Source of the DNA: Candidatus Kapaibacterium sp.
GTDB lineage: Bacteria > Bacteroidota > Ignavibacteria > Palsa-1295
Reading direction: 5' to 3'
Length of the DNA stretch: 64,000 nt
Assembly: GCA_038229915.1 (NCBI GenBank)
Contig: JBBRNY010000001.1
Coordinates: 102,891-166,890, forward strand
Below, in pieces: positions 17,237-31,718 of the stretch. Numbering within the stretch: position 1 is the stretch's first letter; each line of letters opens with the position of its first letter. The notes under the pieces were generated by a model, which had not been told where the DNA came from, did no database searches, and worked only from the letters and a program-made list of their open reading frames with translations. Both the position numbers and the translations under genes were made by a program.

Positions 17237-17312
17237 ATTAATTTTCCTTTCCTATTTTCAAATATACGGCTCTCTAACAGTAGTATACGTAATTGTGCTC
17301 CGCTGTTACTCG

Positions 17313-25650: not shown

Positions 25651-26055
25651 TTACCACCAACCGTTGCGGTTTCCGTAGCTACGTCCCGAAGTATCGGTAC
25701 CTGAAGGATCGTTGTACTCATACTTCTTATGAAGCATCGAGTCTTCGCCGCGTGAGCGTTTTTCCATATTCGGACGGGCCTCGCGTACTGTCAGCGGGCG
25801 TCCTTCAACTTCTTTGCCATTCAACTCACCCATAGCTTTTTGAGCTGAGTCAGGGGTATCCATTTCGACAAAACCAAAGCCTTTCGACTTTTTGGTGATC
25901 ATATCACTGACGATCGCAGTGCTCGACACACGTCCGTACGGAGCAAAAAGCTGCTCAAGCTGTTCGACGGTCCAAGTATAAGGCAGACTGCCGACGTATA
26001 GCTTCTTTCCTACAGCTACTACTGGTTGTTGCTCTTTTTCGGTAACTTCGCTCAT
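25651..26055 (-). CDS. RRM-type RNA-binding protein (glycine/Arg-rich tail)
   Basis: RNP-2 (LYVGSL) and RNP-1 (KGFGFVEM) motifs. Confidence 0.8.
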   Translation of the reverse strand: MSEVTEKEQQPVVAVGKKLYVGSLPYTWTVEQLEQLFAPYGRVSSTAIVSDMITKKSKGFGFVEMDTPDSAQKAMGELNGKEVEGRPLTVREARPNMEKRSRGEDSMLHKKYEYNDPSGTDTSGRSYGNRNGWW

Positions 26056-26172: not shown

Positions 26173-26643
26173 CTATCGGCTCTTTTTCCGGTTTTGAATT
26201 GCTTCAGCGTCCAGAATAATTATACCTAAGGCTATCTGCTCCTCGATCATTGGGAATAATTCGCGCTCCTCGCGGCGGATATGCTTCTCCAGCAATTCGC
26301 CAAAGAGCCTCAGTTTTTCTACTAATTCCGCCGGATCAATCGTCTTGAGCATTTCCAACGATGCTCGCATCGTTGAATGTTCTTCTAATAAAGAAAATAT
26401 TAACACATCTATAGATGGTACTTTATTTATTGATGCCGGGAAAAGGATCTCTTCTTCTAAAAGAAAGTGGGGGTAGAGTTCAGCCTCGGCAAAGCGAAGT
26501 AAAGCCTCGGATTGCTGTCTAGGTTCAATAGGCCAAACGGTATCGTGCGGCGATGAAGGTGCGCCTTTCTTTAAGCGCAGGGCGACAAGAAGCGCTTCGT
26601 GATGGTCATGAGAGAATGGTACGAGAGCCGGATTCCTTGGCAT
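26173..26643 (-). CDS. Hemerythrin HHE cation-binding domain protein
   Basis: H..HH...E near the N-terminus and a later HxxxE pattern; all-helical 156 aa. Translationally coupled to terC. Confidence 0.6.
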   Translation of the reverse strand: MPRNPALVPFSHDHHEALLVALRLKKGAPSSPHDTVWPIEPRQQSEALLRFAEAELYPHFLLEEEILFPASINKVPSIDVLIFSLLEEHSTMRASLEMLKTIDPAELVEKLRLFGELLEKHIRREERELFPMIEEQIALGIIILDAEAIQNRKKSR

Positions 26644-27488
26644 TATACTGCTTCCTTTGCTTCCTTTTTTTCAGGTAACAGCAGAGAAAGTAATATACTT
26701 CCGAGCAGAATACCGATGATGACGACTAATGAGACTAATATACTGGGGTGGATGCTCTCGGAAATCAGTGGCGCCAGCATCTTAAAACCCACAAACCAAA
26801 GGATGATACCCACACCTTTTTTGACAAATCGAAAGGCCTCTTGCATCCGTTCGAGCAAGAAATAAAGCGAGCGAAGCCCGAAAACGGCGAGGATGTTTGA
26901 ACTGTAAACAATAACTGGGTCCCTCGATACGGCGAAAATGGCCGGGATCGAATCCACCGCAAACAGCACATCGGTTAGTTCGATGATCAAGAGGACAACA
27001 AATAACGGTGTGGCAGCAAGCTTGCCGCCATATCGTACGAAGAACTTCTCGCCTTGAAAGTCATCGGTGACATGAATAAATTTCCGGGTCAGCTTGATAA
27101 TCGTGCTTTTCGAGGGGTCAAACTCTTTTTCTTTTCCAAACGACATCACCACACCAGTATAGATCACTATAGCCCCAAAGACATACATCAACCATTCAAA
27201 TTGATTAACGAGGCCGATACCGGCAAAGATCATCACTCCTCGGAGAATCAGTACCCCAACAATTCCCCAGTTCAAGACTCGTCGCTGTTGTTTTGAATTG
27301 ACCTTGAAATGGGTGAAGAGCATTAAAAAAACAAAGAGGTTATCTACCGATAACGCTTTTTCAATGGTGTATCCTGCAAGAAAAGCGAGGGCATGGTCAT
27401 GGCTAAAAAACTCCCAGATCACCAATGATGTGGCAAGTGATAAGCCTATCCAAAAGATACTCCAGAGCAGTGCGCGTTGAAATGACAT
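26643..27488 (-). CDS. TerC/Alx-family integral membrane protein
   Basis: TerC signature (GYTIEKALSVDNLFVF, AVDSIPAIFAV) in a polytopic protein. Confidence 0.85.
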   Translation of the reverse strand: MSFQRALLWSIFWIGLSLATSLVIWEFFSHDHALAFLAGYTIEKALSVDNLFVFLMLFTHFKVNSKQQRRVLNWGIVGVLILRGVMIFAGIGLVNQFEWLMYVFGAIVIYTGVVMSFGKEKEFDPSKSTIIKLTRKFIHVTDDFQGEKFFVRYGGKLAATPLFVVLLIIELTDVLFAVDSIPAIFAVSRDPVIVYSSNILAVFGLRSLYFLLERMQEAFRFVKKGVGIILWFVGFKMLAPLISESIHPSILVSLVVIIGILLGSILLSLLLPEKKEAKEAV

Positions 27489-27737
27489 TGACGATTTAGT
27501 CTCGTGAGAATGCTCTTAATGCTTGAATTTTATGTGCTATCCCAACAGCTTCATGGAATGAAGAATTGCCAAATTTGCAACCAAAACGGAGAGAATTCGA
27601 GGAAAGTATCATCCTAAAATATTTATGTTAAGCGCCGTTAACTTACACGATCAAAGGATATAGCAACATTAACAAAGTTTTTTTCTATGGACGTGTAACA
27701 GAAGGAAATTTGGCGAGTTTATACTGAGCGGACAAGT

Positions 27738-28018
27738 GTGTTCGTATATTTGCCCATTGAAATATATGCTTTTACGACGGGAGGCCCCATCTCTGACGTA
27801 TATTTGCATAGCGCGGTAGTGTGACCCCCTCCGCAGAATCGAGCAATAAGTACATTTATTTGCATTCGCGAAAGTTATTGCTTATATTTGTATTGTTCAG
27901 TTTGAAGGATTTTGTGCATAAGTGCTTTTTCCACGAAACGGAAATTATGGCGCGGCGCATTTTTCTTCGTATATTTATATTTCCGACTTCAGCCGGGAAA
28001 TCTTCGTATATTTGTGGA
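27738..28018 (+). promoter_or_regulatory. Array of six copies of YTCGTATATTTGY (embedding the Bacteroidetes -7 box TAnnTTTG) upstream of the giant repeat-protein gene
   Basis: Copies at about 27740, 27794, 27849 (degenerate), 27879, 27965 and 28001, within a 636-bp non-coding region. Confidence 0.45.
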
Positions 28019-28124
28019 GATTACTATCTGAGGGTGTGCCACGAAGGGGGCACGAGTCGGAAAAAAAGTTTACTAAATAGAAACGTTTCGTTCAATTAAT
28101 TTAAAATCAATAGGAGACGAAGGT

Positions 28125-31100
28125 ATGACTTCACGTCGTTCAATTATGTTAAGCTTGATGCTCGGGGCTTTCCTGAGTGTTACTGGTCTTAACACTGCTT
28201 ATGCCCAAGTCCCGCGTAGTATATCCTACCAGGGGCTATTGATCAAAGCCAATCAGCCTGTTACAGCACAGGTCAATGTCAAGATCAATGTATACAATGC
28301 AGCGGGTCAGGTTCTCTATACAGAGACCATGAATCAGGTGCAGGTAAACAATGGTATTTTTAATGTGCTTCTCGGCGGCAACGCAGGTAACTTGCCATCA
28401 AACTTGAAGTTTGATGAACAATACTACCTCGGCGTTGATGTCGATAACACCGGTGAAATCTCGCCGCGTACTCCTTTCACTGCTGCTCCGTATGCCTTGA
28501 ATGCGCAGACGGTCGGTGGTGTTGGTGTTTCTGTTACTCCGCAGCCTGGCATGTTGTTGCCATTGGATGCTAACGGAAAGATCCCTGCTTCGGTATTGCC
28601 ACAGGCAACCCAGGCAATTGACAACATCAACGGTGTGACCGGTGATGTGTCAGGCAAACTCAATCTTACAGGTGATGGCACTATTACCGTTACCAGCAAC
28701 CCTGCAACAAACACCATTAAGTTGGGTTTTGCTGGCGGAACTGGCAATGGCATTAAGCACATCATGACAGGACCAGGACTCACCGGCGGCGGATCTGACA
28801 CAACTGTCGAGATTCACGTTGCTGATAACGGTATCGTCACCAACATGATCGGAACCGGCGTAGTAACCGGAATGAAACTCGATCAGTATGTTGCTGGTAT
28901 CGGACTTGGCCAAGATATTCTCGGAAACTTGAATATCAACTATAACAAGACCTTAACCATCGTTGGTAGCAACTTAGACACTTTAGGTCTAAATCTTGCT
29001 AATCCAAACACATGGACTGGTTTGCAGACCTTCAATGGCGGTATCACCGTAGGTGGTACAACGACACTTGTAGGACCTGTAATCATTACTGGTAACACAA
29101 CTCAGACTGGCAACTACTCATTGAACGGTAATTTCTCCGTCAAAGGTATTGCTGAGCCAAATGCTCTTAACGGCGCTGCAGTTGCCAATTACGAGATCAT
29201 CGATACCGGTGATTTACGTGTGTTGGGCTTCTCGTACTTGAATGGTAACACCGACATCAATGGCTCGATCCAAAACTCGTCAGCCAATAACGGTGGTGCA
29301 GTATTCATTGCAGACCCACAAGGTTTGACAAACAGCACTGGTAATATCACCAACACTGCTGGTAACATTGTCAACACACTTGGTAACATCAACAACCTTG
29401 CTGGTAACATCAACAACACTGGTCAGATCAACAACACCGGTGCTTTGAATGAAATCGGTATTTCTACTTTGAATGGCAACCTCATTCAGGGTAACGGTAC
29501 TGGCACAACAGCTACTTTCCAGAACAACAGTGCTATCTTTAACTTGACAAACTCTGGTACCAATGGTAACAGTGTTATCGTTAATGGTACTCCTGAGCCA
29601 AACGTTGGAAGTGCTGCTCTTGTACAGAACTATGATCTTACAGACAATGGTGACCTTCGCGTCACAGGTACTTCTAACCTTATTGGTAATACCTTCTTGA
29701 ACCAGACATTGACTGTCGCTGGTGTAACAACCACCAACATTTTGACCAACACTGGTGCATTCACCAACACTGGCACATTTACCGAGACTGGTGCTTCGAC
29801 CTTCAATGGTACGATCAACCAGACTGGTGCTGCTAACACTGTTACTTTCGCTGGACCAACAACGATCAATAACACATTGAACGTCACAGGTCTTTCGACA
29901 TTGACTGGTGTAACCAACAACGGTACATTGACCCAGAGTGGTGTCATCACACAAACAAGTCTTGGTGTCGCACCGAACAATACATTGCTTTCAACTAACT
30001 TCACTGGTAACGTTTTGATCAGTGGTACACTTAGTAACGCAGGTAATGCAACACTCGGAACAGGTGCTGGAACAACAAACACGCTCGGTAATGCTGGAAG
30101 CAGCACCAACACGATCACCGGTTTGAACAACCAGATCATTGCAACCAATACCAATACGATCACCGGATTGATCAACAATATCAACGGTACAACGAATATC
30201 AATGGTAACACACAGATTAACGGTACACTTGGAACTACAGGTAACGTTACTCTCGGTACAGCAAGCACAACAAACACCTTCGGTGCTGTTGGAAGCGCTA
30301 ACCGCTTTAACGGTGTATCGAACTTCGGTTCACTTCCAGCTGGTAACGGTAATAAGTTGATCGTTGATGGTATTCCTAATACCTTGGCACCAACTGCACC
30401 GACAAACTTGCCTCCTGGCTTTGTACAGCCTACTGATTACGAACAGATCATCAATGGTGACCTCTTAGTAACCGGTTTCTCAAACTTGAGAAGCGCAACG
30501 ATCGGTGATCTCTTGGTCACAAACTCTTTCACACTTCCTGCTTCAGCAAGCTTCTGCGCAAACAACATTCAGGTTGCTCAGTTGTCTTCATGGTGCGGTG
30601 GTGCAGCTGGTGCAGCGATTGCTGTTAATACAGCTTTCAACCAGAACAGCCTCGGAACAAGTGCTTTTAACACATTCCTTGGTACGAACTTCACAGGTAA
30701 TGTTGCTATCACAGGTGGTTTGTCTTCAACTGGCAACACTTCGCTTGCAACTCTTCCTGGTTCTTCAGCTACACTCGGAAATAGCACAGGCGCAACAATC
30801 GTCAATGGTAGCACTGTTACTGTAAATGGTCCAACGACCATCAATGGTACAACCGCTCACAATGGTAGCATCACTCAGACTTCAGGTAGTGCTCAGTTCT
30901 TGAATACTCAAGTTAACGGTACACTTGGTTCGACTGGTAACGTTACTCTTGGTACAGCGAGCACGACCAACACGATCGGTGCTGCTGGTGCAACGAACAC
31001 CTTGACCGGTTTGAACAACCAGTTGCTTGCTACTGCAGCAAACACATTGACTGCACCTCAGAATAACCTCAACGGTGTTTTGAACCAAACTGGTAGCTCA

Positions 31101-31580
31101 AACTTCACTGGTGGTACAACAACGTTCACCAACAACCCTGTTGTCTTGAACAACTCGAACATCAACGGTAGCAATAACAGTAATATCAGCAATGTAACTA
31201 CTGTTCAGGCTAACGTCAGCATGACGATCGGTGTTGGTACACAGGCAACTACATTGACAAGCACCAACACAACGGGTGCTGCCATCAACCAGCAGTTGGC
31301 TTCAGTTGGCGGTAAGATCCCGGTTTATCTCCGTCAGATCTCGCAGTTCACTGGTGTCGGTGGTGGACCAAACGGTGGTGCAGTTACACCTGTCATCAAC
31401 TTTGGTGCTAATGGCTTTGATAACAACGATGCTATCACAGTTACCTACTACACACGTAACGGTGCACAGTTCGGACAAATGTATCCGGTTAACATCAACG
31501 CTGTAGCAGGAACGCTTCAGGTTGAGTCAACCAATCCATTGGATGTCAACACTGTACAGGTTGTAATCTTAAGAGACTAA
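28125..31580 (+). CDS. Giant (1151 aa) secreted Thr/Asn/Gly-rich repetitive beta-rich fibrous protein (surface fibril, S-layer or adhesin candidate)
   Basis: Signal peptide ending AYAQ. About 150-aa N-terminal globular domain. Hundreds of NxTG/NTxTGxxN short repeats, including five tandem 7-aa (21-nt) units, three larger modules starting ..NY(D/E)...GDLRVTGxSNL, and a ~75-nt internal duplication. Globular C-terminal ~90 aa. Codon use strongly biased (GGT, AAC, ACT/ACC, GTT). Confidence 0.7.
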   Translation: MTSRRSIMLSLMLGAFLSVTGLNTAYAQVPRSISYQGLLIKANQPVTAQVNVKINVYNAAGQVLYTETMNQVQVNNGIFNVLLGGNAGNLPSNLKFDEQYYLGVDVDNTGEISPRTPFTAAPYALNAQTVGGVGVSVTPQPGMLLPLDANGKIPASVLPQATQAIDNINGVTGDVSGKLNLTGDGTITVTSNPATNTIKLGFAGGTGNGIKHIMTGPGLTGGGSDTTVEIHVADNGIVTNMIGTGVVTGMKLDQYVAGIGLGQDILGNLNINYNKTLTIVGSNLDTLGLNLANPNTWTGLQTFNGGITVGGTTTLVGPVIITGNTTQTGNYSLNGNFSVKGIAEPNALNGAAVANYEIIDTGDLRVLGFSYLNGNTDINGSIQNSSANNGGAVFIADPQGLTNSTGNITNTAGNIVNTLGNINNLAGNINNTGQINNTGALNEIGISTLNGNLIQGNGTGTTATFQNNSAIFNLTNSGTNGNSVIVNGTPEPNVGSAALVQNYDLTDNGDLRVTGTSNLIGNTFLNQTLTVAGVTTTNILTNTGAFTNTGTFTETGASTFNGTINQTGAANTVTFAGPTTINNTLNVTGLSTLTGVTNNGTLTQSGVITQTSLGVAPNNTLLSTNFTGNVLISGTLSNAGNATLGTGAGTTNTLGNAGSSTNTITGLNNQIIATNTNTITGLINNINGTTNINGNTQINGTLGTTGNVTLGTASTTNTFGAVGSANRFNGVSNFGSLPAGNGNKLIVDGIPNTLAPTAPTNLPPGFVQPTDYEQIINGDLLVTGFSNLRSATIGDLLVTNSFTLPASASFCANNIQVAQLSSWCGGAAGAAIAVNTAFNQNSLGTSAFNTFLGTNFTGNVAITGGLSSTGNTSLATLPGSSATLGNSTGATIVNGSTVTVNGPTTINGTTAHNGSITQTSGSAQFLNTQVNGTLGSTGNVTLGTASTTNTIGAAGATNTLTGLNNQLLATAANTLTAPQNNLNGVLNQTGSSNFTGGTTTFTNNPVVLNNSNINGSNNSNISNVTTVQANVSMTIGVGTQATTLTSTNTTGAAINQQLASVGGKIPVYLRQISQFTGVGGGPNGGAVTPVINFGANGFDNNDAITVTYYTRNGAQFGQMYPVNINAVAGTLQVESTNPLDVNTVQVVILRD
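29340..29445 (+). repeat. Five tandem 21-nt (heptad GNIxNTx) coding repeats inside the giant gene
   Basis: ggtaatatcaccaacactgct / ggtaacattgtcaacacactt / ggtaacatcaacaaccttgct / ggtaacatcaacaacact... Confidence 0.7.
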
Positions 31581-31690
31581 TTGAACGACGTTCCACGGTT
31601 TGAGATCTCGGGACACTACTTTGCAGTATGCCCCGAGAGCTCAGCCGGGAATTAACAAACAGATTTTTCTACGTCAGAGAGAGTTCACGA

Positions 31691-31718
31691 AAAACCCCGT
31701 CAATGCGACGGGGTTTTT
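31691..31718. terminator. Strong bidirectional rho-independent terminator
   Basis: aaaa ccccgtc aatgc gacgggg ttttt. A second weaker hairpin (tctcggg...cccgaga) lies at ~31596-31630. Confidence 0.8.

Follow-up and report, generated by a model that had tools for sequence, protein, structure and literature searches.

Probable tandem sigma-A promoters in the conserved leader of a secreted-protein gene from Kapaibacterium-like bacteria

The locus

The subject of this report is a spacer between two genes of Candidatus Kapaibacterium sp., in which one short motif recurs, always in the same orientation, upstream of the gene for a large secreted protein. The spacer was found in a stretch of 64,000 nucleotides (GenBank assembly GCA_038229915.1, contig JBBRNY010000001.1, positions 102,891 to 166,890), which is referred to as a whole as the window and whose own numbering is used throughout. 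An earlier note on this DNA saw a promoter box repeated six-fold and offered two readings, stacked promoters or an array of binding sites for a regulator. I argue that the boxes are probably tandem sigma-A promoters, stacked ahead of a single monocistronic gene whose product is a very abundant secreted and probably cell-surface protein. Tandem promoters are a strategy already known, and the locus is most likely an elaborate form of it in uncultured Kapaibacterium-like bacteria. The features that frame the problem are these:

26643-27488, minus strand: gene for a TerC-family membrane protein, which flanks the spacer
27489-28124: intergenic spacer of 636 bp, which holds the motif cluster and the leader
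28125-31580, plus strand: gene for an 1151-amino-acid (aa) secreted, beta-rich protein of an unannotated family, downstream of the leader

The gene was called giant in the earlier note, which is too strong a word: at 1151 aa the protein is large yet not giant. It has a signal peptide, and its first 300 or so amino acids are conserved while the middle is variable. No match to it was found in Pfam, NCBIfam or PDB sequences. The AlphaFold model is poor (predicted local distance difference test score, pLDDT, of 46), and no structural match fell below E = 0.07.

Among public sequences, the closest relatives of the large protein belong to metagenome-assembled genomes that bear the label Bacteroidota, Ignavibacteriae or Candidatus Kapaibacterium, and NCBI places Kapaibacterium in the phylum Bacteroidota. 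The window has a G+C content of 45.6% and encodes proteins with type IX secretion sorting domains. In Bacteroides fragilis and B. thetaiotaomicron, the sigma-ABfr promoter consists of TTTG at -33 and TAnnTTTG at -7, with an A/T-rich spacer between them that varies in length; the leader that follows is typically short, with a median of 32 nucleotides (nt) in B. thetaiotaomicron (PMC7366714). The distribution of TAnnTTTG in the window supports the view that the present host employs promoters of this type. Outside the spacer, 9 of 51 copies fall in intergenic DNA, which makes up 7% of the window (P = 0.009), and a copy lies 15-72 nt before the start codon in five other genes of the window.

The repeated boxes

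The copies of the motif lie within 1-3 nt of where the earlier note had placed them, and all are on the plus strand, as it had said. Read directly from the sequence, they are:

27741-27752, plus strand: copy 1, TTCGTATATTTG
27795-27807, plus strand: copy 2, GACGTATATTTGC
27850-27863, plus strand: copy 3, GTACATTTATTTGC
27880-27890, plus strand: copy 4, GCTTATATTTG
27966-27977, plus strand: copy 5, TTCGTATATTTA
28003-28014, plus strand: copy 6, TTCGTATATTTG

To call this a six-fold repeat of a -7 element overstates the case. Four copies, boxes 1, 2, 4 and 6, contain the exact octamer TATATTTG (at 27745, 27799, 27883 and 28007), and for these the proposed match to TAnnTTTG holds. Box 5 is a variant, with the octamer TATATTTA at 27970 and A as its final base. 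The octamer TTTATTTG at 27855, the supposed box 3, does not fit TAnnTTTG and is no -7 box.

The clustering of the exact boxes is pronounced. TATATTTG occurs seven times in the 64-kb window, counting both strands, and four of these are inside the 281 bp from 27738 to 28018, for which the rest of the window gives an expectation of 0.0066 (Poisson P = 8e-11). The looser TAnnTTTG is found there four times against 0.11 expected (P = 6e-6). The 10-mer YGTATATTTG, absent elsewhere in about 0.2 Mb of fetched related loci, has one further copy in the window, and this rarity sets the leader boxes apart as exceptional full-consensus boxes. As to whether the motif marks a regulon, a possibility raised in the earlier note, it is indeed rare beyond the leader in the 64 kb and the 0.2 Mb of related loci, and its distribution there does not resemble that of a regulon, apart from a site before brxC and rpoN that is described below.

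The spacing of the boxes is less regular than it had seemed. The start-to-start distances of 54, 56, 28, 87 and 37 bp, earlier taken as rough multiples of the helical repeat, amount to 5.1, 5.3, 2.7, 8.3 and 3.5 turns, and the distances between boxes also shift among relatives.

Promoter elements and their partners

A -7 box should have a partner upstream. The elements that can be assigned to promoters P1, P2 and P3, together with those of a candidate promoter P0 still further upstream, are:

27693-27701, plus strand: GTGTAACAG, an invariant element from the alignment across loci, candidate -35 element (GTAAC) of an extracytoplasmic function (ECF) sigma factor, or activator site
27695-27719, plus strand: candidate P0 in an ECF-type -35/-10 layout, GTAAC at 27695-27699, N17, GTT at 27717-27719 (within GAGTTTAT)
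27715-27722, plus strand: GAGTTTAT, near-invariant; its TTTA (27718-27721), 23 nt before box 1, fits a -33 element of P1 by alignment and spacer counts
27743-27752, plus strand: box 1, CGTATATTTG, predicted -7 element of P1, conserved in all lineages
27797-27806, plus strand: box 2, CGTATATTTG, an extra -7 box with a weak -33 (TTTA at N24)
27855-27862, plus strand: the former box 3, TTTATTTG, predicted -33 element of P2, with TTTG at 27859-27862, 20 nt upstream of box 4
27881-27890, plus strand: box 4, CTTATATTTG, predicted -7 element of P2, conserved in all lineages
27968-27977, plus strand: box 5, CGTATATTTA, a -7 variant, the sole proximal box in loci L004 and L005 and degenerate in other lineages
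28005-28014, plus strand: box 6, CGTATATTTG, predicted -7 element of P3, kept in the window's clade, in L008-L015, in L028-L033 and in others

Across lineages, each of the three conserved boxes is preceded by TTT[G/A] at 20-24 nt, with 23 nt as the commonest value, and before box 4 in particular TTTG is found within this range in 17 lineages. In the window itself, box 4 has TTTG at N20 and box 1 has TTTA at N23. Judged by its sequence and position, then, the supposed box 3 supplies box 4 with its -33 element, and there is no sixth promoter.

Conservation among relatives

Two sets of relatives were compared. Syntenic loci close to the window (L001, L002/L003) encode a large protein 85-88% identical to its own, and a deeper sample comprises about 20 distinct Kapaibacterium-like lineages, with protein identity down to 42%. 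The block from 27693 to 28124 is 93-94% identical to L001 and L002, as against 55-75% for the TerC-proximal half of the spacer (27489-27692) and 54-73% for third codon positions of the flanking genes. Because the block stands so far above third codon positions, the stretches between the boxes must be under selection just as the boxes are.

Three boxes are kept in all 20 lineages at similar places. Counted from the ATG, box 1 lies at -368 to -399, box 4 at -221 to -267 and a proximal box at -118 to -148, with distances between them of 128-163 bp and 101-124 bp. The proximal box is box 6 in most lineages and box 5 (TATATTTA) in L004 and L005; the window's clade has kept both. Box 2 is confined to that clade (the window, L001, L002 and L007) and is missing in L004, in L005 and in all more distant lineages.

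Where orthologous boxes vary, they do so solely at positions 3, 4 and 8 of the octamer, giving TATCTTTG, TATTTTTG, TACATTTA and TATATTTA. Substitutions confined to the free "nn" positions and the final G are the pattern predicted for a sigma-A -7 element. The earlier note held that the CG flank is more conserved than a promoter requires. This does not survive comparison: G is common before the TA, and CG is not universal, since relatives also have TTG, TAG, TCT and GCT. In box 5 the TTC upstream (27966-27968) is the 3' strand of an RNA stem, to which I return.

The last 65 nt of the leader and the first 20 nt of the open reading frame (ORF), 28061-28145, are identical as DNA across about 20 lineages.

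An element upstream of box 1

Every locus that extends far enough upstream has a single copy of GTGTAACAG in the same relative place, separated from GAGTTTAT by a fixed 13 nt. Its distance to the TerC gene is 205 nt in the window as against 136-140 nt in L004 and L005. Constant with respect to box 1 and variable with respect to TerC, the element belongs to the large gene.

What might it do? ECF (group IV) promoters have an AAC-core -35 and a GTT or CGT -10 at 16-17 nt, and the pair, with GTT 17 nt after GTAAC, fits this layout; the -35 AAC motif is characteristic of group IV sigma factors (PMC1540707). In Corynebacterium glutamicum, where ECF promoters such as those of the sigma-D regulon are paired with housekeeping promoters, the ECF consensuses are GTAAC(A/G) at -35 and GAT at -10 for sigma-D, and GGAA(T/C) and GTT for sigma-H (PMC6338062). 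The likeness is that GTAACAG-N-GTT, with 17 nt between GTAAC and GTT, is here followed closely by a promoter of the housekeeping type that would serve a cell-envelope gene. The difference is that the match is to consensuses of distant phyla. A scan of 27 ORFs of the window found no gene for an ECF sigma factor. I treat the pair GTGTAACAG/GAGTTTAT as a candidate for a fourth, stress-responsive promoter, P0, and GTGTAACAG might just as well be a site for an activator, about 60 nt before the transcription start site of box 1.

A similar arrangement is found at one other place in the window:

17259-17309, minus strand: second site, with the layout GTAACAG...GTATACT...CGTATATTTG, which holds the window's sole other exact CGTATATTTG

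The site precedes a bacilliredoxin-like gene (PF06491; brxC), at a distance of about 23 nt from its start and with rpoN next, and may be read as GTAAC-N15-CGTA followed by CGTATATTTG, with spacings that are 3-7 nt off those of the main locus. The site surfaced through a post-hoc pattern joining GTAACAG, TATAYT and TATTTG, and as a counterpart of the leader layout it is only a lead.

RNA structure of the leader

If the boxes are promoters, the stretches between them are also transcribed, and selection may act on them as RNA. The following elements were found:

27813-27834, plus strand: hairpin GCGG-loop-CCGC with C-rich loop GACCCCCU in the P1 leader, seen in the sequence and also present in L005
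27904-27968, plus strand: three-tier RNA stem-loop of 65 nt in the P2 leader, from minimum free energy (MFE) folds and a covariance model
27980-28000, plus strand: hairpin TTTCCG...CGGGAAA between boxes 5 and 6, seen in the sequence
28036-28053, plus strand: hairpin GTGCC-N8-GGCAC downstream of P3, with the stem kept and the loop changed in L001 and L002
28061-28124, plus strand: sequence-invariant proximal leader with AGTTTACTAAA and AACGTTTCGTTCAATT, from the alignment; Shine-Dalgarno sequence AGGAG at 28112-28116
28116-28137, plus strand: possible hairpin GACGAAG/CUUC-ACGUC with the start codon in its loop, conserved in sequence only; its GAAG/CUUC core is in the MFE fold

Among these, the stem-loop of the P2 leader has the strongest support. 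It consists of an outer stem GAAGGA/UUCUUC, a paired UGUGC (UGUGN across lineages) and an inner hairpin UUUCC/GGAAA, with an invariant internal loop AUAAG (UGUGNAUAAG); UGUGCAUAAG spans 27913-27922. When each lineage is folded alone, this is the MFE fold in 20 of 20, with a mean z-score of -2.6. A covariance model built from six sequences, R1, has exactly one match per locus and no other in the 64-kb window. Eleven of its 21 pairs are changed on both sides, and the covariation score is 0.306, compared with 0.20 for shuffled and 0.10-0.14 for slid controls, in an alignment that was fitted to the model. RNAalifold found no or few pairs in plain MAFFT alignments of the spacers; those alignments are out of register, and for that reason the covariance model was needed. 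The 3' strand of the outer stem, TTTTTCTTC, runs into box 5, so that part of what had been taken for a conserved promoter flank is RNA structure.

The other hairpins vary more. At the place of the P1-leader hairpin, distant lineages form a comparable stem, GUCGG...CCGAC, which shows compensatory changes and carries GCCCC in its loop. Where the window has the hairpin at 27980-28000, L004 (CGCA/TGCG) and L005 (TTCCGC/GCGGAA) have hairpins of different sequence. The hairpin after P3, an inverted repeat that the earlier note had correctly recognised, is longer in most lineages, the distant ones included (UAUUCC...GGAAUA, z = -2.7 to -4.1), and weak in the window's clade (z = -0.5). No Rfam family matched at gathering score in the whole window, and none at E <= 10 in 27400-28250.

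Within the leader that follows box 1, 27779-27834 can be drawn as two hairpins with C-rich loops, GGCCCCAU and GACCCCCU, and a loop of the GCCCC type on a covarying stem is found in all lineages. The C-rich loops were considered as anti-Shine-Dalgarno sequences and rejected as such: their duplex energies with the initiation region are no better than those of shuffled sequences (z near 0).

Transcript-like contigs

Gene-sized contigs of 3.2-3.7 kb that include the leader recur in at least 25 samples or assemblies (Joint Genome Institute, JGI, and Logan; several lineages). The samples that gave rise to them include IMG 3300034659-3300034676, 3300065467, 3300065468 and 3300065476, and SRA SRR27362735 and SRR30829068. 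One protein, P0025, is encoded by 19 contigs from different JGI samples. The ten of these that were read are 3449-3490 nt long and contain 339-372 nt upstream of the gene and about 100 nt downstream. Since such contigs recur with much the same size and have ends in common, I read them as metatranscriptome assemblies of an abundant monocistronic mRNA. The leader is transcribed: up to 340-400 nt of it are carried on these contigs, contiguous with the coding sequence in every one. The recurrence of full-length, gene-sized contigs suggests, moreover, that the mRNA of the protein is abundant. The window's own protein was not found in the contig index, so no transcript-like contig represents the window's own clade.

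The 5' ends of the contigs are not scattered. In cluster A, eight contigs from at least five lineages begin between -9 and +3 from the TA of box 1. In cluster B, eight contigs of one lineage begin 14-24 nt past the final G of box 1. Cluster C consists of three contigs, L024, L026 and L022, each of a different lineage, which begin 10, 17 and 17 nt past the final G of box 4. One further contig begins 4 nt before the P3 box, and none reaches GTGTAACAG.

If assembly loses about 10-20 nt of the 5' end, clusters B and C fit starts a few nucleotides after boxes 1 and 4. On the same assumption cluster A needs a start about 15 nt before box 1. This fits the prediction for P0, since the ends of cluster A lie 9-21 nt downstream of the predicted P0 start. 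Because box 1 is inside the cluster A contigs, either an extra upstream start, such as candidate P0, or an assembly artefact is needed to account for them.

A model of tandem promoters

I propose that the boxes are TAnnTTTG -7 elements of the primary sigma factor of Bacteroidota, and that three ancestral promoters precede the gene: P1 (box 1, with the TTTA in GAGTTTAT), P2 (box 4, with the TTTG of the former box 3) and P3 (box 5 and/or box 6). Having kept both proximal boxes and gained box 2, the window's clade would possess up to five sigma-A starts. An ECF-type P0 possibly precedes them all. I infer the exact start sites and the relative strengths of the promoters; the mRNA leaders from P1, P2 and P3 would be about 365, 230 and 110-145 nt long.

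Almost directly after each start the transcript would form a stem-loop of its own, the best supported being the 65-nt hairpin after P2, and these stem-loops, like those of S-layer mRNAs, would shield the 5' end, bind a factor, or do both. Since upstream promoters transcribe through downstream ones, the spacers would be under constraint at two levels, in the DNA (-33, spacer, -7) and in the RNA. The double constraint would account for the conservation of the entire 430 bp, which matches that of first and second codon positions. Of the two readings in the earlier note, stacked promoters are thus the better supported, through the conservation of the boxes, their -33 partners, the pattern of substitutions and the contig ends. 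The reading has to be amended in that box 3 is presumably a -33 element and box 2 is found in one clade only.

Several observations weigh against this model. In the window, boxes 2, 5 and 6 have weak -33 candidates only, and the modal -33 spacing of 23 nt exceeds the roughly 20 nt implied for Bacteroides. The window leader as a whole has an ordinary stability (z = -1.1 and -0.03). No contig end is informative about P3, and cluster A is not explained by a start downstream of box 1. No papers were found for the JGI sample identifiers, so that the transcript nature of the contigs is itself a deduction. Finally, searches by sequence and by structure did not establish that the protein is an S-layer or surface protein.

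Alternative explanations

One might suppose instead that there is a sole start, at GTAAC-N17-GTT (P0), about 15 nt before box 1, and that the boxes act in the RNA, as sites of cleavage by an RNase of the E or Y type or of protein binding, giving rise to processed 5' ends. This would explain why eight contigs starting around the TA of box 1 have that box transcribed, why one contig begins 4 nt before the P3 box and why the leader is joined to the coding sequence in every contig. It would also make sense of a bipartite upstream element that is invariant, fixed in its spacing and in agreement with ECF consensuses. I nevertheless consider it unlikely. An RNA element would have no need of an exact sigma-A consensus with a -33 partner at a fixed distance, nor of variation limited to the "nn" positions. 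The same box is found a short distance before other genes, and the contig ends 10-24 nt past boxes 1 and 4 fit fresh starts. The two models can in any case coexist, because P0 could be added to P1-P3.

More doubtful is the view that the spacers are separate small RNA (sRNA) genes, of about 120 nt from P1 and about 75 nt from P2, each ending at a hairpin and U-rich tract before the next box, with the mRNA made from P3 alone. Hairpins with compensatory changes do lie just before box 4 (UUUUGC...GCAAA, then UUUCUU) and before box 6, and the P2 stem-loop, with its A-rich 5' strand and its U-rich 3' strand followed by more U, resembles an intrinsic terminator. However, these stems are short and A/U-rich, and the contigs run continuously from box 1 to the end of the gene. 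Scans for intrinsic terminators between the boxes found none in the window and, in relatives, no more than in shuffled sequences, with one weak terminator-like site in each distant locus. Nor does the leader hold a conserved small ORF: from one lineage to the next, the longest open stretches change both reading frame and place. With terminators at the level of chance and no conserved ORF, the spacers look like leader modules and not like sRNA genes or genes for small proteins. Partial attenuation within the leader is possible.

Least probable is the regulator array of the earlier note, in which the boxes would be operators for a protein that recognises YCGTATATTTG and overlaps the -7 boxes, for although a G, often CG, precedes the TA in most copies and the full 10-mer is very rare beyond the leader, the copies lack helical phasing, their spacing differs among lineages, the motif has no dyad symmetry, nothing in the boxes is conserved beyond the sigma-A consensus (the flank may be TTG, TAG, TCT or GCT, and in one case is explained by an RNA stem), and in 64 kb and about 0.2 Mb of related loci the distribution is not that of a regulon, the brxC-rpoN promoter excepted.

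Complementarity between the ends of the message

Near the start of the gene is a segment that is complementary to its end:

28134-28147, plus strand: 5' arm ACGTCGTTCAATTA, codons 4-8, with 14 nt of complementarity to the 3' untranslated region (UTR)
31578-31591, plus strand: 3' arm TAATTGAACGACGT, the stop codon and 11 nt, the exact reverse complement of the 5' arm

The pairing would involve ACGTCGTTCAAT and ATTGAACGACGT. Complementarity of 11-15 nt is found in 21 of 22 sequences, including some whose proteins are just 42% identical, at a chance expectation of about 2e-6 per locus. The exception is L032, with a truncated reading frame of 210 aa. This complementarity is one reason for the identity, as DNA, of the end of the leader and the start of the ORF. 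Both arms are invariant and there is accordingly no covariation.

The most economical reading is that the 5' and 3' ends of the mRNA may pair with each other. It is possible that the complementarity acts as an inverted repeat in DNA, against which stands the fact that all loci have the gene in the same orientation. Pairing of this kind within one mRNA has reportedly been described for icaR of Staphylococcus aureus and hbs of Bacillus subtilis. The present case would be like these in that the region of translation initiation has a perfect complement in the 3' UTR of its own mRNA, and unlike them in where the arms lie, the 5' arm within codons 4-8 and the 3' arm from the stop codon onwards, with both arms invariant.

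A third copy of the complementarity sequence, direct and imperfect, is present in the leader at 28084-28098. The direct repeat as a whole comprises TCGTTCAATTAATTTAA (28084-28104) and TCGTTCAATTATGTTAA (28136-28152), which flank the ribosome-binding site and the start codon. In the 3' UTR there is a conserved long hairpin at 31603-31645, GAGATCTCGG...CCGAGAGCTC. Further on, at 31686-31712, a stem followed by a run of T, CCCCGTC-AATGC-GACGGGG-TTTTT, could terminate both convergent genes; the terminator scan did not list it.

One may go further and suppose that the leader is a modular region of post-transcriptional control specific to Kapaibacteriaceae-like bacteria. It would combine a new cis-acting RNA motif (the 65-nt three-tier stem-loop with its invariant internal loop UGUGNAUAAG, which has no Rfam match), a conserved closed loop formed by pairing of codons 4-8 with the nucleotides that directly follow the stop codon, and a choice among promoters (P0-P3) that sets which RNA modules a transcript carries, and hence its stability or translation. 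I put this forward tentatively, as a conjecture that stands some way short of probable.

Comparison with known systems

The promoters of ribosomal RNA operons, P1 and P2, are the familiar case in which promoters are reiterated for high and differentially regulated output. The analogy, drawn already in the earlier note, extends to the reiteration itself. It does not extend to the product, here a protein-coding mRNA, or to the provision of each promoter with its own leader module.

The sigma-ABfr promoters of Bacteroides are alike in the -7 consensus, which is exact here, and in having a TTTG-like element beyond an A/T-rich spacer that varies in length, and the host belongs to the same phylum, Bacteroidota. 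They differ in that three to five would be stacked here before one gene, with a -33 spacing of 20-24 nt, as predicted from sequence in this lineage. The leaders here, of 110-365 nt, are much longer, and a clear Shine-Dalgarno sequence is present.

Another parallel is the S-layer gene slpA of Lactobacillus/Levilactobacillus, which has promoters P1 and P2, a 5' UTR stem-loop that stabilises the mRNA and a long-lived message (PMC10221546). By sequence and conservation, two or more same-sense promoters stand before one gene at the present locus too, and the predicted structures provide a long 5' UTR with a stem-loop near its 5' end. Shared, if the model is right, would be several same-sense promoters, a single monocistronic gene for an abundant secreted envelope protein, a long leader and, on each transcript, a stem-loop at the 5' end. 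However, the two systems belong to different phyla and depend on different sigma factors, there are more promoters here, and the product has no detectable S-layer similarity, its presumed location in the envelope being a matter of inference.

There may be more general uses for such a locus. Promoters of uncultured Bacteroidota lineages are essentially unmapped, and here several full-consensus sigma-A promoters and a candidate ECF promoter appear to be conserved over deep divergence. The locus could serve as a reference set for promoter prediction and could provide genetic tools for the group with strong expression signals. The leader also points to what is probably the most abundant secreted protein of the family, one without annotation. 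The covarying stem-loop and the 5'-3' complementarity may govern the stability or translation of the message, and there is a modest chance that the leader holds new RNA regulatory elements.

Neighbouring sequences

The TerC-proximal half of the spacer (27489-27692) has no match to the yybP-ykoY (Mn2+) riboswitch, which is often found before TerC genes. Its minus strand contains no perfect TAnnTTTG. Near the TerC start there are short blocks of conserved sequence (GCTCGTGAGAATGCTCTTA).

Beyond TerC, at 25651-26055 on the minus strand, is a gene for an RRM-domain RNA-binding protein whose conservation is far above that of its neighbours. It is 96% identical as DNA to its counterpart in L002, and its third codon positions are 88% identical, compared with 62-73% in neighbouring genes.

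One of the related loci, L006 (CAYOJJ010000001.1), bears the record title "uncultured Alphaproteobacteria bacterium". It is fully syntenic with the Kapaibacterium-like loci and has the same leader, and the alphaproteobacterial label is therefore probably a taxonomic mis-assignment.

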